A stretch of DNA of 64,000 nt from the NCBI RefSeq assembly GCF_053078305.1, contig NZ_CP166879.1, one strand, 5' to 3'. Of this stretch, positions 366 through 40,258 are shown in pieces (the stretch's first letter is position 1; the number at the start of each line of letters is the position of its first letter). Both the position numbers and the translations under genes were made by a program. The notes under the pieces were generated by a model. The model saw only the letters and a program-made list of their open reading frames with translations, did not search any database and was not told where the DNA came from.

Positions 366-384
366 CTGGCATGATTTGTGAATG
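366..384 (+). promoter_or_regulatory. Candidate sigma54-type -24/-12 promoter element for hydN-hypF (imperfect: TGGCAT-N5-GTGA)
   Basis: TGGCAT matches the -24 box; the -12 GC is replaced by GA; about 35 bp upstream of the hydN start. Confidence 0.25.
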
Positions 385-1099: not shown

Positions 1100-3352
1100 A
1101 TGGCAAAAAACACATCTTGCGGTGTCCAACTGCGTATTCGTGGCAAAGTGCAGGGCGTCGGTTTTCGTCCGTTTGTCTGGCAGCTGGCACAGCAATTAAA
1201 TCTTCACGGCGATGTCTGTAATGACGGCGATGGCGTAGAAGTCCGGCTGCTGGAAGACCCGGAAACGTTTCTTGTTCAATTGCATCAGCACTGTCCGCCA
1301 CTGGCGCGTATTGATAGCGTCGAGCGTGAGCCGTTTATCTGGCCACAGCTGCCCACCGAGTTCACCATCCGCCAGAGCACAGGCGGCGCCATGAATACGC
1401 AAATTGTTCCCGATGCCGCCACTTGCCCTGCTTGCCTTGCCGAAATGAATACCCCAGGCGAACGGCGTTATCGTTATCCGTTTATCAACTGTACCCACTG
1501 CGGCCCGCGCTTCACCATTATTCGCGCGATGCCTTACGATCGCCCGTTTACCGTGATGGCGGCGTTTCCGCTGTGTCCAGCCTGTGATAAAGAGTACCGC
1601 GACCCGCTCGATCGTCGCTTCCACGCCCAGCCGGTGGCCTGCCCGGAGTGTGGCCCGCATCTTGAATGGGTAAGTCATGGTGAACATGCAGAACAAGAGG
1701 CGGCATTACAGGCGGCTATCGCACAGTTAAAAATGGGCAACATTGTCGCCATCAAAGGGATTGGCGGATTTCATCTTGCCTGCGATGCACGTAACAGTAA
1801 CGCGGTGGCGACACTTCGGGCGCGCAAACATCGCCCGGCGAAACCGCTGGCAGTCATGTTGCCAGTGGCTGACGGTTTACCAGACGCTGCGCGCCAGTTG
1901 CTTACCACGCCCGCTGCGCCGATTGTGCTGGTGGATAAAAAATACGTACCTGAGATTTGTGATGATATCGCCCCTGGCCTTAACGAAGTCGGGGTGATGT
2001 TGCCTGCGAACCCGCTCCAGCATTTGCTGTTACAGGAACTGCAATGCCCGCTGGTGATGACCTCTGGCAACCTGAGCGGTAAACCACCGGCTATCAGCAA
2101 CGAACAGGCGCTGGCGGATTTGCAGGGCATTGCCGACGGATTCTTGATACATAACCGCGACATCGTACAGCGGATGGATGATTCGGTGGTGCGCGAAAGC
2201 GGCGAAATGCTGCGTCGTTCGCGGGGATATGTACCGGACGCACTGGCTTTGCCTCCGGGTTTTAAAAATGTTCCGCCTGTGCTGTGTCTCGGCGCGGATC
2301 TGAAAAACACCTTCTGCCTGGTGCGCGGTGAACAAGCGGTGTTGAGTCAGCATCTGGGCGATTTAAGTGACGATGGCATCCAGATGCAGTGGCGCGAAGC
2401 GTTACGCCTGATGCAAAACATCTACAATTTCACCCCGCAATACGTTGTGCATGACGCACATCCGGGCTATGTCTCCAGCCAGTGGGCGCGCGAAATGAAT
2501 ATGCCGGCGCAAACGGTACTGCATCATCATGCCCATGCAGCGGCGTGTCTGGCAGAGCATCAGTGGCCGCTGGATGGCGGTGATGTCATTGCTTTGACGC
2601 TCGACGGTATCGGTATGGGGGAGAACGGCGCTTTGTGGGGCGGCGAGTGCCTGCGGGTGAACTATCGCGAATGTGAGCACCTGGGCGGCTTGCCTGCAGT
2701 GGCGCTTCCGGGTGGCGATTTGGCGGCGAAGCAGCCGTGGCGTAACCTGCTGGCGCAGTGCCTGCGCTTTGTGCCGGAGTGGCAGAATTACCCTGAAACG
2801 GCAAGTGTGCAACAGCAAAACTGGAGCGTACTGGCGCGGGCCATTGAGCGTGGAATTAACGCGCCGCTGGCGTCATCGTGTGGGCGGGTGTTCGATGCAG
2901 TGGCGGCGGCACTGGGCTGTGCGCCAGCCACGTTAAGTTATGAAGGTGAAGCGGCTTGTGCTCTGGAGGCGCTCGCAGCCTCATGCCACGGAGTGACGCA
3001 TCCGGTGACAATGCCGCTGGTGGACAATCAACTGGATCTCGCCACTTTCTGGCAGCAGTGGCTGAACTGGCAGGCACCGGTTAATCAACGCGCGTGGGCG
3101 TTTCATGATGCGCTGGCGCAGGGTTTTGCCGCGTTGATGCGTGAGCAGGCCACGATGCACGGTATCACTACGCTGGTATTTAGCGGCGGGGTTATTCATA
3201 ACCGTTTGCTGCGTGCACGTCTGGCGCATTATCTCGCTGATTTCACATTGCTCTTCCCGCAGAGTTTACCGGCGGGTGATGGCGGTTTGTCTCTGGGGCA
3301 GGGGGTTATTGCTGCGGCGCGTTGGTTAGCGGGTGAAGTCCAGAACGGATAA
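1100..3352 (+). CDS. hypF: [NiFe]-hydrogenase maturation carbamoyltransferase HypF
   Basis: ORF 1028..3352; from [25 protein letters not shown].. it has acylphosphatase, two Zn-finger CxxC pairs, YrdC and Kae1-like regions typical of HypF; start placed at the ATG at 1100. Confidence 0.92.
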
Positions 3353-3376
3353 AACGTGTTGCATTTGGACACCCTT

Positions 3377-3672
<296 letters not shown>

Positions 3673-3675
3673 CGC

Positions 3676-4809
3676 CTACACCGGCAATGTTTTCAACAAT
3701 CCAAATGCCTCTTTCATCCGATCCTCACTGACCACAAAGGCGCGAAGTTGGTCTGCATCGTCAACACCGCGCGCCACCATTCCCTGGCGTTCGGTATTAA
3801 TCTGCCAGCGTAAATCCTGACGCTGGGTTTCGCCTGCCAGATGCAGCGGTAATTCCGGCGTTTTGATTTTCACCAGCATCGCCGGTAGTTTCAGCGGCGT
3901 GTTATTGCCGAGAAGATTTTTTGCCAGCACCATCGCGCTAAGTTGAATCGGCTGCAGGAACGGCAGTACCTGACCGTTAATTTCCGCGCAATCGCCCAGC
4001 GCGTAAATATCGGCATTACTGGTTTGCAGATAACTATCGACGCAAACGCCGCGATTAATCGTCAGCCCGGCGCGTCGTGCCAGGGCGGTTTCCGGGCGCA
4101 GTCCGGTGGCGGCAATTACCGCATCCACTTCGATGCTACGCTGGCGGTCCAGCGTTGCCAGAATGCCAGAATCCGTTTTTTCCAGCCCCTGCAACTGAGA
4201 TTTCAACAGCAGATGAACGCCCATCTCCGTCAACCGATGCTGCAAGCGGCTGCTTACTTCCGGTGGCATTAACGACGCCAGAATACTGGTAGCGTTGTCG
4301 ATTAGCGTAACCATTTTGCCTGCACGACAAAAATCCATCGCCAGTTCGCTACCAATCAAACCACCGCCAACAATCAACACGCGTCGGGCATCCCGCAGTT
4401 GCGTTTCACAGGCGCGATACTCTTGCTGACTATTTAACGTCAGCATTAACTCACGCCCAGGCACAGGCGGGACAAAGGCGCTGGCACCAGTTGCCAGCAC
4501 TAACTTGTCGTATTGCCACTGATTATTCTGGCTTTTCACCACATGGGCTTCGGCATCGATATCCGTCACCCAGGTGTGCGGAAACAGGCGCAGATTAAAC
4601 TGCTCGGCAAATTCACCCGCCGTCTGGCGGGTAAGGTCGTCGGCACGTTGCCCCTGACTGATAACATGGCTGAGGTCAGGTTTGTTGTACTCATCCATGC
4701 TGTCGGCGGCAATCAGGGTTAATGGAATACTGGCGTCCTGTTTGCGAATATTTTTCACCAGTTGGCGGGCGGCGAAGCCCGAACCAATGATCACAATGCC
4801 GTTGCTCAT
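3676..4809 (-). CDS. norW: NADH:flavorubredoxin reductase NorW
   Basis: 377-aa ORF; N-terminal GxGxxG FAD/NAD fold ([14 protein letters not shown]); directly downstream of norV with 4-bp overlap. Confidence 0.93.
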
Positions 4810-6245
4810 TTTGCCTCCGATGCCAGTTCGTCAAAGACGTCTTTGCCGAGGGAGCATTCCGGGCACAGGAAGTTATCCGGGACTTCACTCCACGGCGTTC
4901 CTGGCGCAACGTCCTGCATTGGCTCGCCTTTTGCCGGATCGTAAATCCACTGGCAGACGCTGCACTGCATCCGTGGGCCGAGGTCAGCCGTCGTGGTGGC
5001 AGAGGTTTCTTCTTTAACTACCGTATTCACCGTGCTCTGCGGCAGCGGCGCGAGCGCCCACTGACGGGCGATTTCGCGACCGTGTTCACGGCATAACTCC
5101 AGAGCGTCCTGGTCTGGTCGCCATTTCGCTTTCAGGCTAAGCGACATTTCGAAACCCGCATCCTGCAGGCGCGTGGAAAGACGATCCACCGCACCGCCGC
5201 TCCAGCCGTGAGAGCCGAAAGCACTGGCGCGTTTGTTACGGAAGCGTAATCCGGTCATCTCCTCCACCAGCCCGGCGATTTTCGGCATCATCACGTTATT
5301 CATCGTCGAAGTGCCGACCAGCACGCCTTTTGAGCGGAAGACATTGGTCAGGATTTCGTTTTTATCGCTTCGGGCGACGTTGAAAATTTTCACCGCCACG
5401 CGTGGGTCGGTTTCCGCAATCCCCTGGGCGATAGCGTCAGCCATCATGCGGGTGTTATTCGACATGGTGTCGTAGAAAATGGTGATTCTGTCTTCCTGAT
5501 AATCAGCGGCCCACTTCAGGTACAGCTCGACAATTTGCGTCGGGTTATCGCGCCAGACCACGCCGTGGGAGGTCGCTATCATATCGACTGGTAAGTTAAA
5601 GCCCAGGATCTCGGTAATTTTCGGCGTTACCAGGCGGCTGAACGGCGTCAGGATATTGGCGTAGTAACGCTGGCACTGCTCGAAAAGCTCCGTCTGATCC
5701 ACTTCATCGTTGAACAGATGCTCGTCGCAGTAGTGCTGACCGAAAGCATCGTTACTGAACAGCACCGCGTCGCCTGTCAGGTAAGTCATCATGCTGTCCG
5801 GCCAGTGCAGCATTGGTGTTTCGACAAAAATGAGCTGTTTGCCGTTGCCGATATCCAGCGTGTCGCCAGTTTTCACCACATTAAAATTCCACTCCGGATG
5901 ATGGTGATGACCATTTATCGAGTCGATAGCGTTGGCTGTACAGTAGATCGGCGTATCGGGAATTTGTGCCATCAGTTCGGTCAGCGCCCCGGCGTGGTCC
6001 TCTTCTGCATGGTTAATCACGATGTAATCGATATCCGCCAGATCGATTTCATTACGCAGGTTCTGCACAAATTCGCGGCTGAATTTATGGTCGACGGTGT
6101 CGATCAGCACGTTTTTTTCTTCGCGGATGAGGTAGCTGTTGTAGCTGCTGCCGCGCAGCGTTTTATATTCCGTGCCGTGAAAATCACGCACTTCCCAGTC
6201 ACGTTGACCCACCCAATGAATGTTATTTTTCACCACAATAGACAT
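4806..6245 (-). CDS. norV: Anaerobic nitric oxide reductase flavorubredoxin NorV
   Basis: 479-aa ORF; metallo-beta-lactamase-like, flavodoxin-like and C-terminal rubredoxin ([14 protein letters not shown]) regions. Confidence 0.95.
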
Positions 6246-6291
6246 AGCAACCTCAATTTATTCAGCGTGTTCTAAAAAGATGTCTTGCTAA

Positions 6292-6309
6292 TTGCAGATT
6301 GCGTGCCAG
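6292..6309 (-). promoter_or_regulatory. sigma54 (-24/-12) promoter of norVW
   Basis: Minus-strand reading cTGGCACgcaatcTGCAa fits TGGCAC-N5-TTGCA; located about 50 bp upstream of the norV ATG. Confidence 0.75.
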
Positions 6310-6363
6310 TTTTTTATCTGATTGTTTTTACTCTATAAATAAAATTATGCTCATTAGTGAGTA

Positions 6364-6419
6364 GTCAAAATGACTATCAATCAAATGGTCGATATGACAA
6401 TATCTATAGTCAAATTGAC
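6364..6419. promoter_or_regulatory. Three NorR enhancer sites (GT-N7-AC): gtcaaaatgac, gtcgatatgac, gtcaaattgac
   Basis: Three evenly spaced GT-N7-AC motifs at 6364-6374, 6388-6398 and 6409-6419 in the norR-norV divergent intergenic region, upstream of the sigma54 promoter. Confidence 0.8.
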
Positions 6420-6431
6420 AGTGAGGCAAAG

Positions 6432-7946
6432 ATGAGTTTTTCCGTTGATGTGCTGGCGAATATCGCCATCGAATTGCAGCGTGGGATTGGTCATCAGGAT
6501 CGTTTTCAGCGCCTGATCACCACGCTGCGTCAGGTGCTGGAGTGCGATGCGTCTGCGTTGCTACGTTACGACTCGCGGCAGTTTATTCCGCTTGCCATCG
6601 ACGGGCTGGCGAAGGATGTACTCGGTAGACGCTTTGCGCTGGAAGGTCATCCACGGCTGGAAGCGATTGCCCGCGCGGGTGATGTGGTGCGCTTTCCCGC
6701 AGACAGCGAATTGCCCGATCCCTATGACGGTTTGATTCCAGGGCAGGAGAGTCTGAAGGTTCACGCCTGCGTTGGTCTGCCGCTGTTTGCCGGGCAAAAC
6801 CTGATCGGCGCATTGACGCTCGACGGGATGCAGCCCGATCAGTTCGATGTTTTCAGCGACGAAGAGTTACGCCTGATTGCCGCGCTGGCGGCGGGAGCGT
6901 TAAGCAATGCGTTGCTGATTGAGCAACTGGAAAGCCAGAATATGCTGCCGGGCGATGCCGCTCCATTTGAAGCGGTGAAACAGACGCAGATGATCGGTCT
7001 GTCGCCAGGCATGACGCAACTGAAAAAAGAGATTGAGATTGTGGCGGCGTCCGATCTCAACGTCCTGATCAGCGGTGAGACGGGAACCGGTAAGGAGCTG
7101 GTGGCGAAAGCGATTCATGAGGCCTCGCCACGGGCGGTGAATCCGCTGGTCTATCTCAACTGTGCCGCACTGCCGGAAAGTGTGGCGGAAAGTGAGTTGT
7201 TCGGGCATGTGAAAGGAGCGTTTACTGGCGCTATCAGTAACCGCAGTGGGAAGTTTGAAATGGCGGATAACGGCACGCTGTTTCTGGATGAGATCGGCGA
7301 GTTGTCGTTGGCATTGCAGGCCAAGCTGCTGAGGGTGTTGCAGTATGGCGATATTCAGCGCGTTGGCGATGACCGTAGTTTGCGGGTCGATGTGCGCGTG
7401 CTGGCGGCGACTAACCGCGATTTACGCGAAGAGGTGCTGGCAGGGCGATTTCGCGCTGACTTGTTCCACCGCCTGAGCGTGTTTCCACTTTCGGTGCCGC
7501 CGCTGCGTGAGCGGGGCGATGATGTCATTCTGCTGGCGGGGTATTTCTGCGAGCAGTGTCGTTTGCGGCAGGGGCTCTCCCGCGTGGTATTAAGTGCCGG
7601 AGCGCGAAATTTACTGCAACACTATCGTTTTCCGGGGAACGTGCGCGAACTGGAACATGCTATTCATCGGGCGGTAGTGCTGGCGAGAGCCACCCGCAAC
7701 GGCGATGAAGTGATTCTTGAGGCGCAACATTTTGCTTTTCCTGAGGTGACGTTACCGCCGCCAGAAGCGGCGGCGGTGCCCGTTGTTAAGCAAAACCTGC
7801 GTGAAGCGACAGAAGCGTTCCAGCGTGAAACTATTCGTCAGGCACTGGCACAAAATCATCACAACTGGGCAGCCTGCGCGCGAATGCTGGAAACCGACGT
7901 CGCCAACCTGCATCGGCTGGCGAAACGTCTGGGATTGAAGGATTAA
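6432..7946 (+). CDS. norR: Nitric-oxide-responsive sigma54-dependent transcriptional activator NorR
   Basis: ORF 6357..7946; from [18 protein letters not shown].. contains GAF domain, AAA+ sigma54-interaction domain ([14 protein letters not shown]) and C-terminal HTH; start placed at ATG 6432. Confidence 0.92.
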
Positions 7947-16014: not shown

Positions 16015-16040
16015 TCGTTCGTTATTGATGATAATAGATA

Positions 16041-16177
16041 ATGTGTGCACGGACGGTCCCCTCGCCCCTTTGGGGAGAGGGTTAGGGTGAGGGGAACAGG
16101 CCAGCACTGGCGTGAAAAATTACTCTCACCTCGATCCTCTAACGAATTGGGCCTGCGGGAACATTCTGCACACTCAT
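16041..16177. repeat. Small (about 137 bp) MITE-like intergenic element with imperfect terminal inverted repeats and an internal GC-rich palindrome
   Basis: Ends atgtgtgcac (16041-16050) and tgcacactcat (16167-16177) are inverted relative to each other; internal cccctcgcccc-ttt-ggggagaggg hairpin; no ORF. Confidence 0.5.
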
Positions 16178-16208
16178 TGACTATTAAATCTGTTTATCAG
16201 CAAAACCT

Positions 16209-16238
16209 GGGTCGCATCTGCGGCCCTTTTGCTTTTTT
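16209..16238 (+). terminator. Rho-independent terminator/attenuator between recA and recX
   Basis: Hairpin gggtcgc-atct-gcggccc followed by ttttgctttttt, ending about 18 bp before the recX ATG. Confidence 0.7.
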
Positions 16239-20250: not shown

Positions 20251-20343
20251 GGTGAGGTGGCCGAGAGGCTGAAGGCGCTCCCCTGCTAAGGGAGTATGCG
20301 GTCAAAAGCTGCATCCGGGGTTCGAATCCCCGCCTCACCGCCA
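20251..20343 (+). tRNA. serV: tRNA-Ser (anticodon GCU), long variable arm
   Basis: ggtgaggtggccgagaggctgaagg..ccgcctcaccgcca; anticodon loop cuGCUaa; about 93 nt with encoded CCA. Confidence 0.9.
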
Positions 20344-20346
20344 TTT

Positions 20347-20423
20347 GCATCCGTAGCTCAGCTGGATAGAGTACTCGGCTACGAACCGAGCGGTCGGAGG
20401 TTCGAATCCTCCCGGATGCACCA
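20347..20423 (+). tRNA. tRNA-Arg (anticodon ACG), copy 1
   Basis: gcatccgtagctcagctggatagagtactcggctACGaaccgagcggtcggaggttcgaatcctcccggatgcacca (77 nt). Confidence 0.92.
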
Positions 20424-20487
20424 TCTCTTACTTGATACGGCTTTAGTAGCGGTATCAAAAAATCTGCAGTAAAGTAAGTTTCCCGAT

Positions 20488-20564
20488 GCATCCGTAGCTC
20501 AGCTGGATAGAGTACTCGGCTACGAACCGAGCGGTCGGAGGTTCGAATCCTCCCGGATGCACCA
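20488..20564 (+). tRNA. tRNA-Arg (anticodon ACG), copy 2
   Basis: Identical 77-nt sequence to copy 1. Confidence 0.92.
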
Positions 20565-20626
20565 TCTCTTACTTGATATGGCTTTAGTAGCGGTATCAAT
20601 ATCAGCAGTAAAATAAATTTCCCGAT

Positions 20627-20703
20627 GCATCCGTAGCTCAGCTGGATAGAGTACTCGGCTACGAACCGAGCGGTCGGAGGTTCGAATCCTCCCGGATGCA
20701 CCA
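20627..20703 (+). tRNA. tRNA-Arg (anticodon ACG), copy 3
   Basis: Identical 77-nt sequence to copy 1. Confidence 0.92.
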
Positions 20704-20838
20704 TATTCTCCGAAATCTTCAGCAATGAAGATATCGAAGAGGTAGCGGAATTAACCGCAGGCACCAGGGAGGATAACGTTGCGCCAGCAACGGCCCGAAG
20801 GGCGAGCCGCAAGGCGAGTAATCCTCCCGGATGCACCA
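20704..20838 (+). repeat. About 135-bp spacer repeat ending in a tRNA-Arg 3' remnant (aatcctcccggatgcacca), unit 1
   Basis: Read from sequence: ttctccgaaatcttcagcaatgaagatatcgaagaggtagcggaattaaccgcaggcaccagg.. ends with the last 19 nt of tRNA-Arg. Confidence 0.7.
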
Positions 20839-20901
20839 TCTCTTACTTGATATGGCTTTAGTAGCGATATCAATATCAGCAGTAAAATAAATTTTCCCGA
20901 T

Positions 20902-20978
20902 GCATCCGTAGCTCAGCTGGATAGAGTACTCGGCTACGAACCGAGCGGTCGGAGGTTCGAATCCTCCCGGATGCACCA
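20902..20978 (+). tRNA. tRNA-Arg (anticodon ACG), copy 4
   Basis: Identical 77-nt sequence to copy 1. Confidence 0.92.
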
Positions 20979-23887: not shown

Positions 23888-23960
23888 AAAAAGGCCACTC
23901 GTGAGTGGCCAAAATTTCATCTCTGAATTCAGGGATGATGATAACAAATGCGCGTCTTTC
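23888..23960 (-). ncRNA. micA: MicA (SraD) Hfq-dependent small RNA
   Basis: Minus-strand sequence gaaagacgcgcatttgttatcatcatccctgaattcagagatgaaattttggccactcacgagtggccttttt matches MicA including its terminator hairpin; lies between gshA and luxS. Confidence 0.9.
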
Positions 23961-30554: not shown

Positions 30555-30636
<82 letters not shown>

Positions 30637-38047: not shown

Positions 38048-38255
38048 GATTCGTATTTCCGTTTAAAATGAAGATACGGCGCGATGATACGCGTCGGGTT
38101 GTCTCTCTGTTGATACAGAGATACTAGATGTAGTTTAAAAAAGATTCAACCATACAAGATATGGGAATTTTAGATTGATTACGCCACCGATGAATGGCTC
38201 AACGGGGTAGGGGATTTTGTGTTTTTTTGCCGGGTGATTACCCGGCATCAAGAAG

Positions 38256-38687
38256 TTACATGCGCATGGAAACGGCCAGACGGTTAAAACAATTCATCAG
38301 CCCGATGGCAAACGTTAAGTCGCTGATTTCTGCTGCGCTGAAATGCTCAAGCAAAGGTTGATAAACCTCGTCTTCCGCATGGGTTCGGGCAATATCGGTT
38401 ACCGATTCCGCCCATGCCAGCGCCGCCCGCTCGCGATCGTCAAAATGATGGCTTACGCGCCAGCCTGCCAGGGCGTCCAGTTTGTGCTGCGGCACACCGG
38501 ATTTGCGTAATGCTTTGCTGTGCATCTCCAGACAAAATGCGCAGCCGTTGATTTGCGAGACGCGCAAATAAATTAACTCCATCAGCGTGGTATCCAGCGC
38601 GCTATTTTCCAGTGCCGTTTTGGCCTGCACCAGTGCGTTATACACTGCCGGGCTAAGTTCGTAGTAAGGCTGACGTAATGTAGTCAT
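38256..38687 (-). CDS. Carboxymuconolactone decarboxylase / AhpD-like family protein
   Basis: 143-aa ORF; core motif NGCAFCLEMH typical of the AhpD/CMD fold; divergent from the MocR-like regulator. Confidence 0.6.
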   Translation of the reverse strand: MTTLRQPYYELSPAVYNALVQAKTALENSALDTTLMELIYLRVSQINGCAFCLEMHSKALRKSGVPQHKLDALAGWRVSHHFDDRERAALAWAESVTDIARTHAEDEVYQPLLEHFSAAEISDLTFAIGLMNCFNRLAVSMRM

Positions 38688-38774
38688 ACAGTTTCTCCTC
38701 TTATTAACGCCCGCAATGTAGCACTATAATGGACTGCTAAAGAGAGCCATAAATTACCTAAAAAAGCAGACCAT

Positions 38775-40109
38775 ATGCCACGTTATCAGGATATCGCCCG
38801 TCAGTTAAAAACGGCTATTGAGCAAGGGGAACTGAAACCTGGCGCAAGGCTACCTTCGAGTCGTACCTGGTCGCAGGAGTTGGGCGTCTCTCGATCCACT
38901 GTCGAAAATGCGTATGCTGAGCTGGTGGCGCAGGGATGGCTGGTCAGGCGGGGACAGGCGGGTACCTTTGTCAGTGAGCAGATACATCCGCAACAGTCTG
39001 CTGTGGATGTCGTGGCTTTTGCTGGTGAAAGTCAGCAGCCGCTGCCTTTTCAGATGGGGCTACCTGCACTTGATCTTTTTCCGCGTGAATTGTGGGCGCG
39101 GGTGATGGGCCGCCGTCTGCGTACCCAGACGCGTTTTGATTTGGCATTAGGCGATGTCTGCGGCGAGGCGGCCTTGCGCGAGGCTATTGTTGATTATTTA
39201 CGCGTTTCACGTGGGATTGATTGTCAGCCAGAGCAGGTCTTTATCACTCACGGTTATGCGGCCTCAATGGCTTTAATTCTGCACGCTCTGGCGCAACCGG
39301 GAGACGGGATGTGGATGGAAGATCCCGGCTTTCCGCTGATTCGCCCGATTGTCACTCGCCACGGTGTGGAAATTTTACCTGTGCCGGTTGATGACAACGG
39401 ACTGGATGTCACAAGCGGAATACAAAATTATCCTGATGCGCGTTTTGCCCTGATTACTCCGGCACACCAAAGCCCGCTGGGTGTGGCACTCTCTTTAGCG
39501 CGTAGGTATCAGATACTGGAATGGGCAGAGCGTAGTCAGGCATGGATTATTGAAGATGATTACGACAGTGAGTTTCGCTATCACGGTAAGCCGTTACCGG
39601 CACTAAAAAGTCTCGACGCGCCGCAGCGGGTGATTTATGCCGGAACATTCAGCAAAGCGCTATTTCCTGCATTGCGCTGTGCGTGGCTGGTGGTGCCGGT
39701 GGAGCAGATTTCGCAATTCCGGCAGCAGGCGTCACTGGAACCATGTGCTGTACCCGTACTGTGGCAGAACACACTGGCAGATTTCATCCGTGAGGGGCAT
39801 TTCTGGCGGCATCTGAAGAAAATGCGCCAGCATTATGCCCAGCGACGGCAGTGGATTGAGCAGGCACTTACGCAGCAGGGATTTCAGGTTGTGCCGCAAA
39901 AAGGCGGTATCCAGATGGTGATCAAACTAGCAGGTAATGACGTGACATTCGTGCATAAAGCCAATGCTGCTGGTCTTGCCGTACAGGCACTTAGCGACTG
40001 GCGTATCCGCTCAAGCGAGGACGGAGGATTATTGCTCTCGTTTACGAATATCGTTAGCGAAAGTATGGCGCGACAGGTAGCACAGCAATTGCGCAGTGCT
40101 TTAAATTAA
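38775..40109 (+). CDS. MocR/GabR-type transcriptional regulator (GntR wHTH fused to a PLP-dependent aminotransferase-like domain)
   Basis: 444-aa ORF; N-terminal GntR HTH (RLPSSRTWSQELGVSRSTVENAYAELVAQGWLVRRGQAGTFV) and C-terminal fold-type-I region with GTFSK PLP-lysine motif. Confidence 0.8.
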   Translation: MPRYQDIARQLKTAIEQGELKPGARLPSSRTWSQELGVSRSTVENAYAELVAQGWLVRRGQAGTFVSEQIHPQQSAVDVVAFAGESQQPLPFQMGLPALDLFPRELWARVMGRRLRTQTRFDLALGDVCGEAALREAIVDYLRVSRGIDCQPEQVFITHGYAASMALILHALAQPGDGMWMEDPGFPLIRPIVTRHGVEILPVPVDDNGLDVTSGIQNYPDARFALITPAHQSPLGVALSLARRYQILEWAERSQAWIIEDDYDSEFRYHGKPLPALKSLDAPQRVIYAGTFSKALFPALRCAWLVVPVEQISQFRQQASLEPCAVPVLWQNTLADFIREGHFWRHLKKMRQHYAQRRQWIEQALTQQGFQVVPQKGGIQMVIKLAGNDVTFVHKANAAGLAVQALSDWRIRSSEDGGLLLSFTNIVSESMARQVAQQLRSALN

Positions 40110-40258
40110 TAACCCCGAAGCCAGGCTTCGGGGTCCTATAAGACTGGTGACCAGGGCAAAATCCCCTGATGCGCTATGTTTTTCAGGCCTGTAGGCGGAC
40201 AAGGCGTTGACGCACTGAGTACTTTTCAGAAGTCAGACTACTGCTTGTCATCGTCTCA

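Follow-up and report, generated by a model that had tools for sequence, protein, structure and literature searches.

The stretch of DNA analysed here (hereafter the window) covers 64,000 nucleotides of contig NZ_CP166879.1. It is E. coli DNA, and the nearest complete genome matches it with 98.9% identity over 25 kb. The subject of this study is the divergent norR–norV spacer at positions 6246-6431 (186 bp, 32% G+C) together with the genes that border it. On the minus strand lies norV (4806..6245), an intact gene encoding the flavorubredoxin NO reductase of 479 aa, and beside it norW (3676..4809, minus strand), which encodes the NADH:flavorubredoxin reductase of 377 aa. The first 4 bp of norW are shared with the end of norV, and the norV-norW operon is intact, without frameshift or deletion. 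On the plus strand norR (6432..7946), also intact, encodes the NO-sensing sigma-54 enhancer-binding protein of 504 aa. The gene order is that of K-12 MG1655 (norR–norVW, b2709/b2710), with hydN-hypF on one flank and gutQ-srlR-gutM-srlD on the other.

Results of full-length, gap-free comparison with the K-12 proteins showed 99% identity for NorV (477 of 479 residues), 99% for NorR (498/504) and 97% for NorW (367/377). All three were assigned to NCBIfam equivalog models, with scores of 1047 bits for NorV (NF003954, cut-off 711), 686 bits for NorW (NF003437, cut-off 392) and 824 bits for NorR (NF003451, cut-off 476). Pfam domains were ODP/Lactamase_B, Flavodoxin_1 and Rubredoxin in NorV, and GAF, Sigma54_activat and AAA_lid_14 in NorR. 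The Pfam HTH_8 model did not reach 1e-5 in NorR; the HTH lies within the last 58 residues, and these do not differ from those of K-12. Alignment to K-12 NorR also showed that the GAFTGA loop (residues 262-267) and the Walker A motif are kept, as are all five of the published iron ligands, R75, D96, D99, C113 and D131 (PMC4601167). An open reading frame with a GTG start at 6357-7946 was rejected as a mere 5′ extension of norR; the ATG at 6432 yields the 504-aa K-12 protein. An Rfam scan of the norR–norV spacer detected no known RNA family.

NorR boxes and the norVW promoter

The earlier note on this DNA had claimed three GT-N7-AC sites for NorR between norR and norV. All three are there exactly as described, and they are the only matches to this pattern in the 186-bp spacer. 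Site 1 (GTCAAAATGAC, 6364-6374), the box closest to the promoter, has the wild-type sequence from which both the Site1 primer and the 21-bp NorR1 oligonucleotide derive, and site 2 (GTCGATATGAC, 6388-6398) and site 3 (GTCAAATTGAC, a palindromic GT-N7-AC at 6409-6419) are the wild types of the Site2 and Site3 primers, respectively. These are the mutagenic primers with which Tucker et al. (2010) changed GT-N7-AC to GG-N7-CC in the three boxes (PMC2831303). Each box in the window is in fact an extended GTC-N5-GAC palindrome. The norR ATG lies 12 bp beyond the end of site 3. The 66-bp NorR123 oligonucleotide, described as the minimum footprinted DNA (PMC2831303), corresponds to positions 6359-6424 on the minus strand with zero mismatches. 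In the same study mutation of any single box abolished the induction of a norV-lacZ fusion, and NorR sites were found conserved upstream of norV, hmp and norA (PMC2831303).

For the promoter, the outcome was less straightforward. The minus strand carries a sigma-54 promoter, CTGGCACGCAATCTGCA (6309-6293), composed of TGGCAC (6308-6303), GCAAT and CTGCA (6297-6293), with the -24 GG at 6307-6306 and the -12 GC at 6295-6294; these dinucleotides are ten bases apart and the promoter points toward norV. A consensus TGGCAC-N5-TTGCA promoter had been reported in the earlier note. The promoter is indeed present, but its -12 box is CTGCA and not TTGCA, i.e., one mismatch (C for T) to that consensus. The TTGCA that had been read (6292-6296) is on the plus strand, where it forms part of the complement of CTGCAA, shifted by one base, and TGGCAC-N5-TTGCA occurs on no single strand. 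The CTGCA box is also common to E. albertii, Citrobacter and Pseudocitrobacter, and it is the native Escherichia/Citrobacter allele rather than a lesion. Because the same allele is native to K-12, the deviation is no argument against function. The 17-mer CTGGCACGCAATCTGCA does not differ from K-12 and is identical to the motif of the sigma-54 ChIP-seq peak OS25, assigned to norV in K-12 (Bonocora 2015, PMC4591121). An RpoN gSELEX peak has also been located within the norR/norV spacer (PMC8743547).

Counting 12 nt from the -12 GC, we place the norV transcription start near 6282, which would give an untranslated leader at 6246..6282 (minus strand). The 37 nt from this predicted start to the ATG equal the value of 37 given for norV in Table 1 of PMC4591121. 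Site 1 is separated from the TGGCAC -24 box by 55 bp (6309-6363), and relative to the predicted start the centres of the three boxes would lie near -87, -111 and -132.

As such short patterns are expected to recur, we determined how often they appear by chance. GT-N7-AC alone gave 212 matches in the 64-kb window, and triplets of it within 45 bp were seen four times vs. about one expected; for the sigma-54 pattern with up to one mismatch, 1.9 matches are expected by chance per 64 kb. Each of these two patterns, GT-N7-AC and the 11-base sigma-54 motif, is thus individually at chance level in 64 kb, and these figures are what could be said for the motifs being chance matches to a short, degenerate consensus in an A/T-rich spacer, devoid of regulatory meaning. 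The extended palindrome behaves differently. GTC-N5-GAC occurs only 12 times in 64 kb, and three of these copies lie inside a 56-bp stretch. About 2e-4 such triples are expected per 64 kb, and 0 of 150 simulations produced one; this clustering is highly non-random. Similarly, only 0.4% of simulations with the spacer's own composition contained three or more GT-N7-AC matches, and DNA of exactly this sequence has been shown by experiment to be bound. Considering also the recurrence of the array in other genomes (see below), we regard the probability of a chance origin as negligible. What secures the call is that the palindromes are extended and clustered, that they lie in the right spacer and in the right order relative to a properly oriented promoter, and that they match characterised DNA exactly.

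Directly upstream of the -24 box we noted an A/T-rich, IHF-like block, TAAAAACAATCAGATAAAAAA (6310..6330, minus strand), whose coordinates were derived from alignment to other genera. Binding of IHF has been reported in the interval that separates the NorR sites from the start of norV transcription (PMC2831303, citing Tucker 2004), and the 6310-6330 block is the probable bending site. In most other genera the exact IHF consensus AATCAAnnnnTTA is found at the position of this block; the version in E. coli and in the window (6310-6330) is degenerate, AACAATCAGATAA. The exact consensus WATCARNNNNTTR gave nine matches in the 64-kb window and none in the norR–norV spacer, where the strict scan is blank because the E. 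coli block is degenerate.

The three-box array in other bacteria

As an independent test we scanned about 100,000 species, each represented by a single genome, with the pattern GTCA-N3-TGAC, an 11-15-bp gap, GTC-N5-GAC, an 8-12-bp gap and GTC-N5-GAC, which returned at least 120 loci. A NorR homologue (42-96% identity) starts right after box three in 59 of those 120 listed, on the same side in every case, and in 29 of these 59 norV is the divergent gene. Among the matches listed, the norR-adjacent arrays were found in Enterobacteriaceae, Pectobacterium, Morganella, Shewanella, Moritella, Photobacterium, Pseudomonas and several Burkholderiales, and thus span gamma- and betaproteobacteria. That the array stands beside norR in so many of the listed loci, together with a conserved -24 box, is a further argument against a chance origin of the motifs. 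Other arrays among the matches listed flank genes for flavohaemoglobin, quinol NO reductase or NnrS, which agrees with the report of NorR sites upstream of norV, hmp and norA cited above.

We then aligned 30 norV-type spacers, including that of the window, from a range of genera. The -24 TGGCAC, which was outside the search pattern, turned out to be nearly invariant (1.85 of 2 bits). The -12 box reached 1.14 bits and the block abutting the -24 box 1.17 bits, vs. 0.6-0.7 bits in the spacers. The offset between site 1 and the promoter is 54-56 bp in Escherichia, Citrobacter and Pseudocitrobacter. As in the window, three boxes lie directly upstream of norR in Citrobacter, Pseudocitrobacter, Enterobacter, Lelliottia, Klebsiella, Pectobacterium and Morganella, and these genera likewise have TGGCAC at -24 and a divergent norVW; an IHF-type site abuts their -24 box, at the position of the IHF-like block of the window. 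They also differ from the arrangement seen here. In Klebsiella, Pectobacterium and a norV-bearing Pseudomonas about 42-43 bp separate site 1 from the promoter vs. 55 bp in the window, and the Enterobacter group has TTGAT at -12, without the GC. A norV promoter reading TGGCACGCAACTTGATA was observed in Enterobacter, Lelliottia, Pseudescherichia, Phytobacter and Morganella (loci L016, L018, L020, L030, L037, L039, L047, L063, L069 and L088). It has GA for the canonical GC at -12, yet the -24 element is conserved in these loci, and so are all three boxes and the IHF site.

More distant counterparts are the enhancers of hmp/fhp (Pseudomonas, Vibrio), norAB (Ralstonia eutropha) and qnorB, which consist of the same GT-N7-AC palindromes in arrays of three and also adjoin a NorR-type regulator and an NO-detoxifying gene (see also PMC4601167). 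They differ from the region described here in their target (flavohaemoglobin, quinol NO reductase or NnrS vs. flavorubredoxin), in the spacing of the boxes (15/8 or 14/9 vs. 13/10) and in a NorR identity of only 45-60%. The TyrR boxes of E. coli offer a parallel of another kind, drawn by Tucker et al. themselves, with three adjacent dimer sites nucleating a hexamer of a protein related to the enhancer-binding proteins (PMC2831303). TyrR, in turn, has sigma-70 as its partner, is mainly a repressor and differs in box sequence and ligand.

Several strong three-box arrays without an adjacent norR were also observed in Pseudomonas spp. They adjoin a 116-aa conserved secreted protein with no Pfam match (L033, L080 and L118), a CheW-plus-receiver (CheV-like) protein (L070 and L113) and NnrS (L065), and are possible distal members of the NorR regulon. 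Among the remaining matches, those in Bacteroidales MAGs (L002, L021-L023, L041-L045, L084 and L112) and in an Actinomycetes MAG (L007) were set aside as tandem palindromic arrays with a 22-23-bp period, unrelated to NorR. The other matches, in Streptomyces and Clostridia, are consistent with a few chance matches for so short a pattern.

The NO-responsive switch and its variation within E. coli

On this evidence we identify the region, with a probability of roughly 95%, as the canonical norR–norVW divergent control region of E. coli. When it was compared with the published sites, every published element aligned at the coordinates given here, and the misalignment that the earlier note had named as grounds for refutation did not occur. 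The earlier note had presented the region as a known system, included as a positive control, and this description holds: it is the K-12 norR–norVW region, whose published 66-bp enhancer is matched without a mismatch. The control region is already known and nothing in it is novel. Its value here is one of calibration, as motif reading from the sequence alone placed a textbook module at the right coordinates and deserves trust to that extent.

According to the model that we favour, three NorR dimers would occupy the three palindromic boxes at 6364-6419, whose centres are 24 and 21 bp apart, and would assemble on the DNA into a hexameric AAA+ ring. Sigma-54 RNA polymerase would meanwhile be held in a closed complex on CTGGCACGCAATCTGCA, and IHF would bend the A/T-rich DNA between enhancer and promoter to bring the ring to the sigma-54 holoenzyme. 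Binding of NO to the ferrous iron of the NorR GAF domain would relieve the repression of the ATPase, upon which the ring could remodel the holoenzyme into an open complex and allow transcription of norV-norW leftward from about 6282. Occupancy of the same boxes would lower the transcription of norR. The binding itself, the need for all three sites, hexamer assembly, the IHF footprint and bending, and NO sensing are taken from published work (PMC2831303, PMC4601167).

The position of the boxes raises the question of how norR itself is controlled. With only 12 bp between the end of site 3 and the norR ATG, enhancer and norR promoter must overlap. In the annotation of K-12, NorR is a dual regulator, and from this annotation and the geometry we infer that NorR bound to the boxes probably damps norR transcription. 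One could go further and see the three boxes mainly as operators that repress an overlapping norR promoter, with the activation of norV being secondary. Such a reading is in line with the dual annotation and with the distance of only 12 bp, which requires norR transcription to start within or beyond the enhancer. Yet, the loss of norV-lacZ induction in every single-box mutant makes activation a demonstrated primary role, and across genera the array is found at a fixed distance from a conserved sigma-54 promoter. In addition, a simple sigma-70 scan located no norR promoter on the plus strand; it gave one match on the minus strand, at chance level. We therefore consider a mainly operator role doubtful. 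Repression of norR is in any case an addition to the activation of norVW, which stays the main explanation, and not a rival to it.

Comparison with K-12 MG1655 showed that the leader and ribosome-binding site, the three NorR boxes with their 24- and 21-bp spacing, the IHF-like block and the sigma-54 17-mer are all identical. The K-12 region was reportedly characterised by Tucker et al. in 2004 and 2010, by Gardner et al. in 2003 and by Hutchings et al. in 2002. Only two bases of the spacer differ from K-12, at 6351 and 6357, both between site 1 and the IHF-like block and hence outside the NorR boxes, that block and the promoter. The T at 6351 is shared with most E. coli, K-12 being the one that deviates. 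The G at 6357, by contrast, is replaced by A in all six other aligned Escherichia (K-12, O157, three other E. coli and E. albertii). This position is 7 bp from site 1 on the promoter side, one base outside the 21-bp NorR1 oligonucleotide.

Across complete E. coli genomes the 281-bp region was found in 5425 of 5426; none of them contained an exact match to it, the best being 99.6% identical. Of 5423 complete E. coli records, 3735 have the 66-bp enhancer with an identity of 99% or more; for the block of promoter and IHF-like sequence the corresponding count is 3134 of 5410. As to the proteins, NorR carries six substitutions relative to K-12 (T177A, C316S, S399R, S423N, T443P and V446A) and NorW ten. 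The exact proteins recur on public E. coli contigs, 115 of them for NorR, at least 1000 for NorV and 19 for NorW.

The earlier note took the intact motifs as a sign that the switch is functional. Given that both the elements and the genes are intact, there is a strong inference that the norVW switch works in this strain, and anaerobic detoxification of NO under the control of NorR has most likely been kept here, as in nearly all E. coli. It could be objected that function is not readable from sequence. The cis-architecture might be intact and the switch nevertheless dead, either through a defect in rpoN or ihf (rpoN and ihfA/B lie outside the window) or through the six substitutions in NorR, which include C316S and S399R in the AAA+/lid region, or the ten in NorW, a protein only 97% identical to that of K-12. 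However, all three proteins are full-length and exceed the equivalog cut-offs by a wide margin, NorR has its known iron ligands, GAFTGA loop and Walker A motif unaltered, and the recurrence of the exact proteins on other contigs marks them as circulating alleles, not a private lesion. A dead switch is accordingly very unlikely.

A subtler effect is conceivable, namely that the change at 6357 or the NorR allele (C316S, S399R and the four others) measurably retunes the strength of NO induction. A possible route for this would be contacts with flanking DNA or wrapping, as suggested by experiments with 266-bp vs. 66-bp DNA. The prospect of such retuning seems to us slight in the extreme.

In the course of these comparisons we came across a bloodstream isolate, E. 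coli AF3 (L124, NZ_OZ547117.1), with a 45-bp deletion in the norV–norR spacer that leaves a single NorR box. Because mutants in single boxes are published to abolish induction, the induction of norVW should be lost in AF3.

Other features of the window

A second sigma-54 promoter, CTGGCATGATTTGTGAA, is located at 366-382 (plus strand) upstream of hydN-hypF and matches exactly the K-12 ChIP-seq motif OS26 (PMC4591121). Its -12 box is GTGAA, without the GC. Between hypF and norW (3364-3711) lies an array of the REP/BIME type with three 98-bp units, vs. one in K-12, and owing to these extra units the hypF–norW spacer is about 196 bp longer than in K-12. An open reading frame inside this array (3229-3609, 126 aa) has no Pfam match and was dismissed as a gene, being probably spurious.

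Further differences from K-12 were seen elsewhere in the window. The recA–recX spacer (16018-16209) contains about 190 bp missing from K-12, which form a small dispersed repeat with G-rich inverted arms; the repeat is present in 6-14 copies per E. coli genome, and about 1630 genomes have a copy at this same site with at least 99% identity. Between nrdH and ygaM (38162-40257) there is a 2.1-kb segment, also missing from K-12, with genes for a 444-aa regulator of the MocR type (GntR–aminotransferase) and, divergently oriented, a 143-aa protein of the carboxymuconolactone-decarboxylase family. The gene ygaQ, a pseudogene in K-12, is intact here as a 750-aa open reading frame (52084-54336, minus strand). 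The ypjA autotransporter frame (57923-62632, plus strand) measures 1569 aa in the ORF listing, with a GTG start, vs. 1526 aa in K-12. The tmRNA gene ssrA (62792-63155) directly adjoins the ypjA side, the 22-kb CP4-57 cryptic prophage of K-12 being absent. Rfam and ARAGORN also detected, as in K-12, the REP-derived RNA naRNA4 (30558-30635, minus strand), MicA (23889-23960, minus strand) and the serV-argV/Y/Z/Q tRNA cluster (20251-20978, plus strand).
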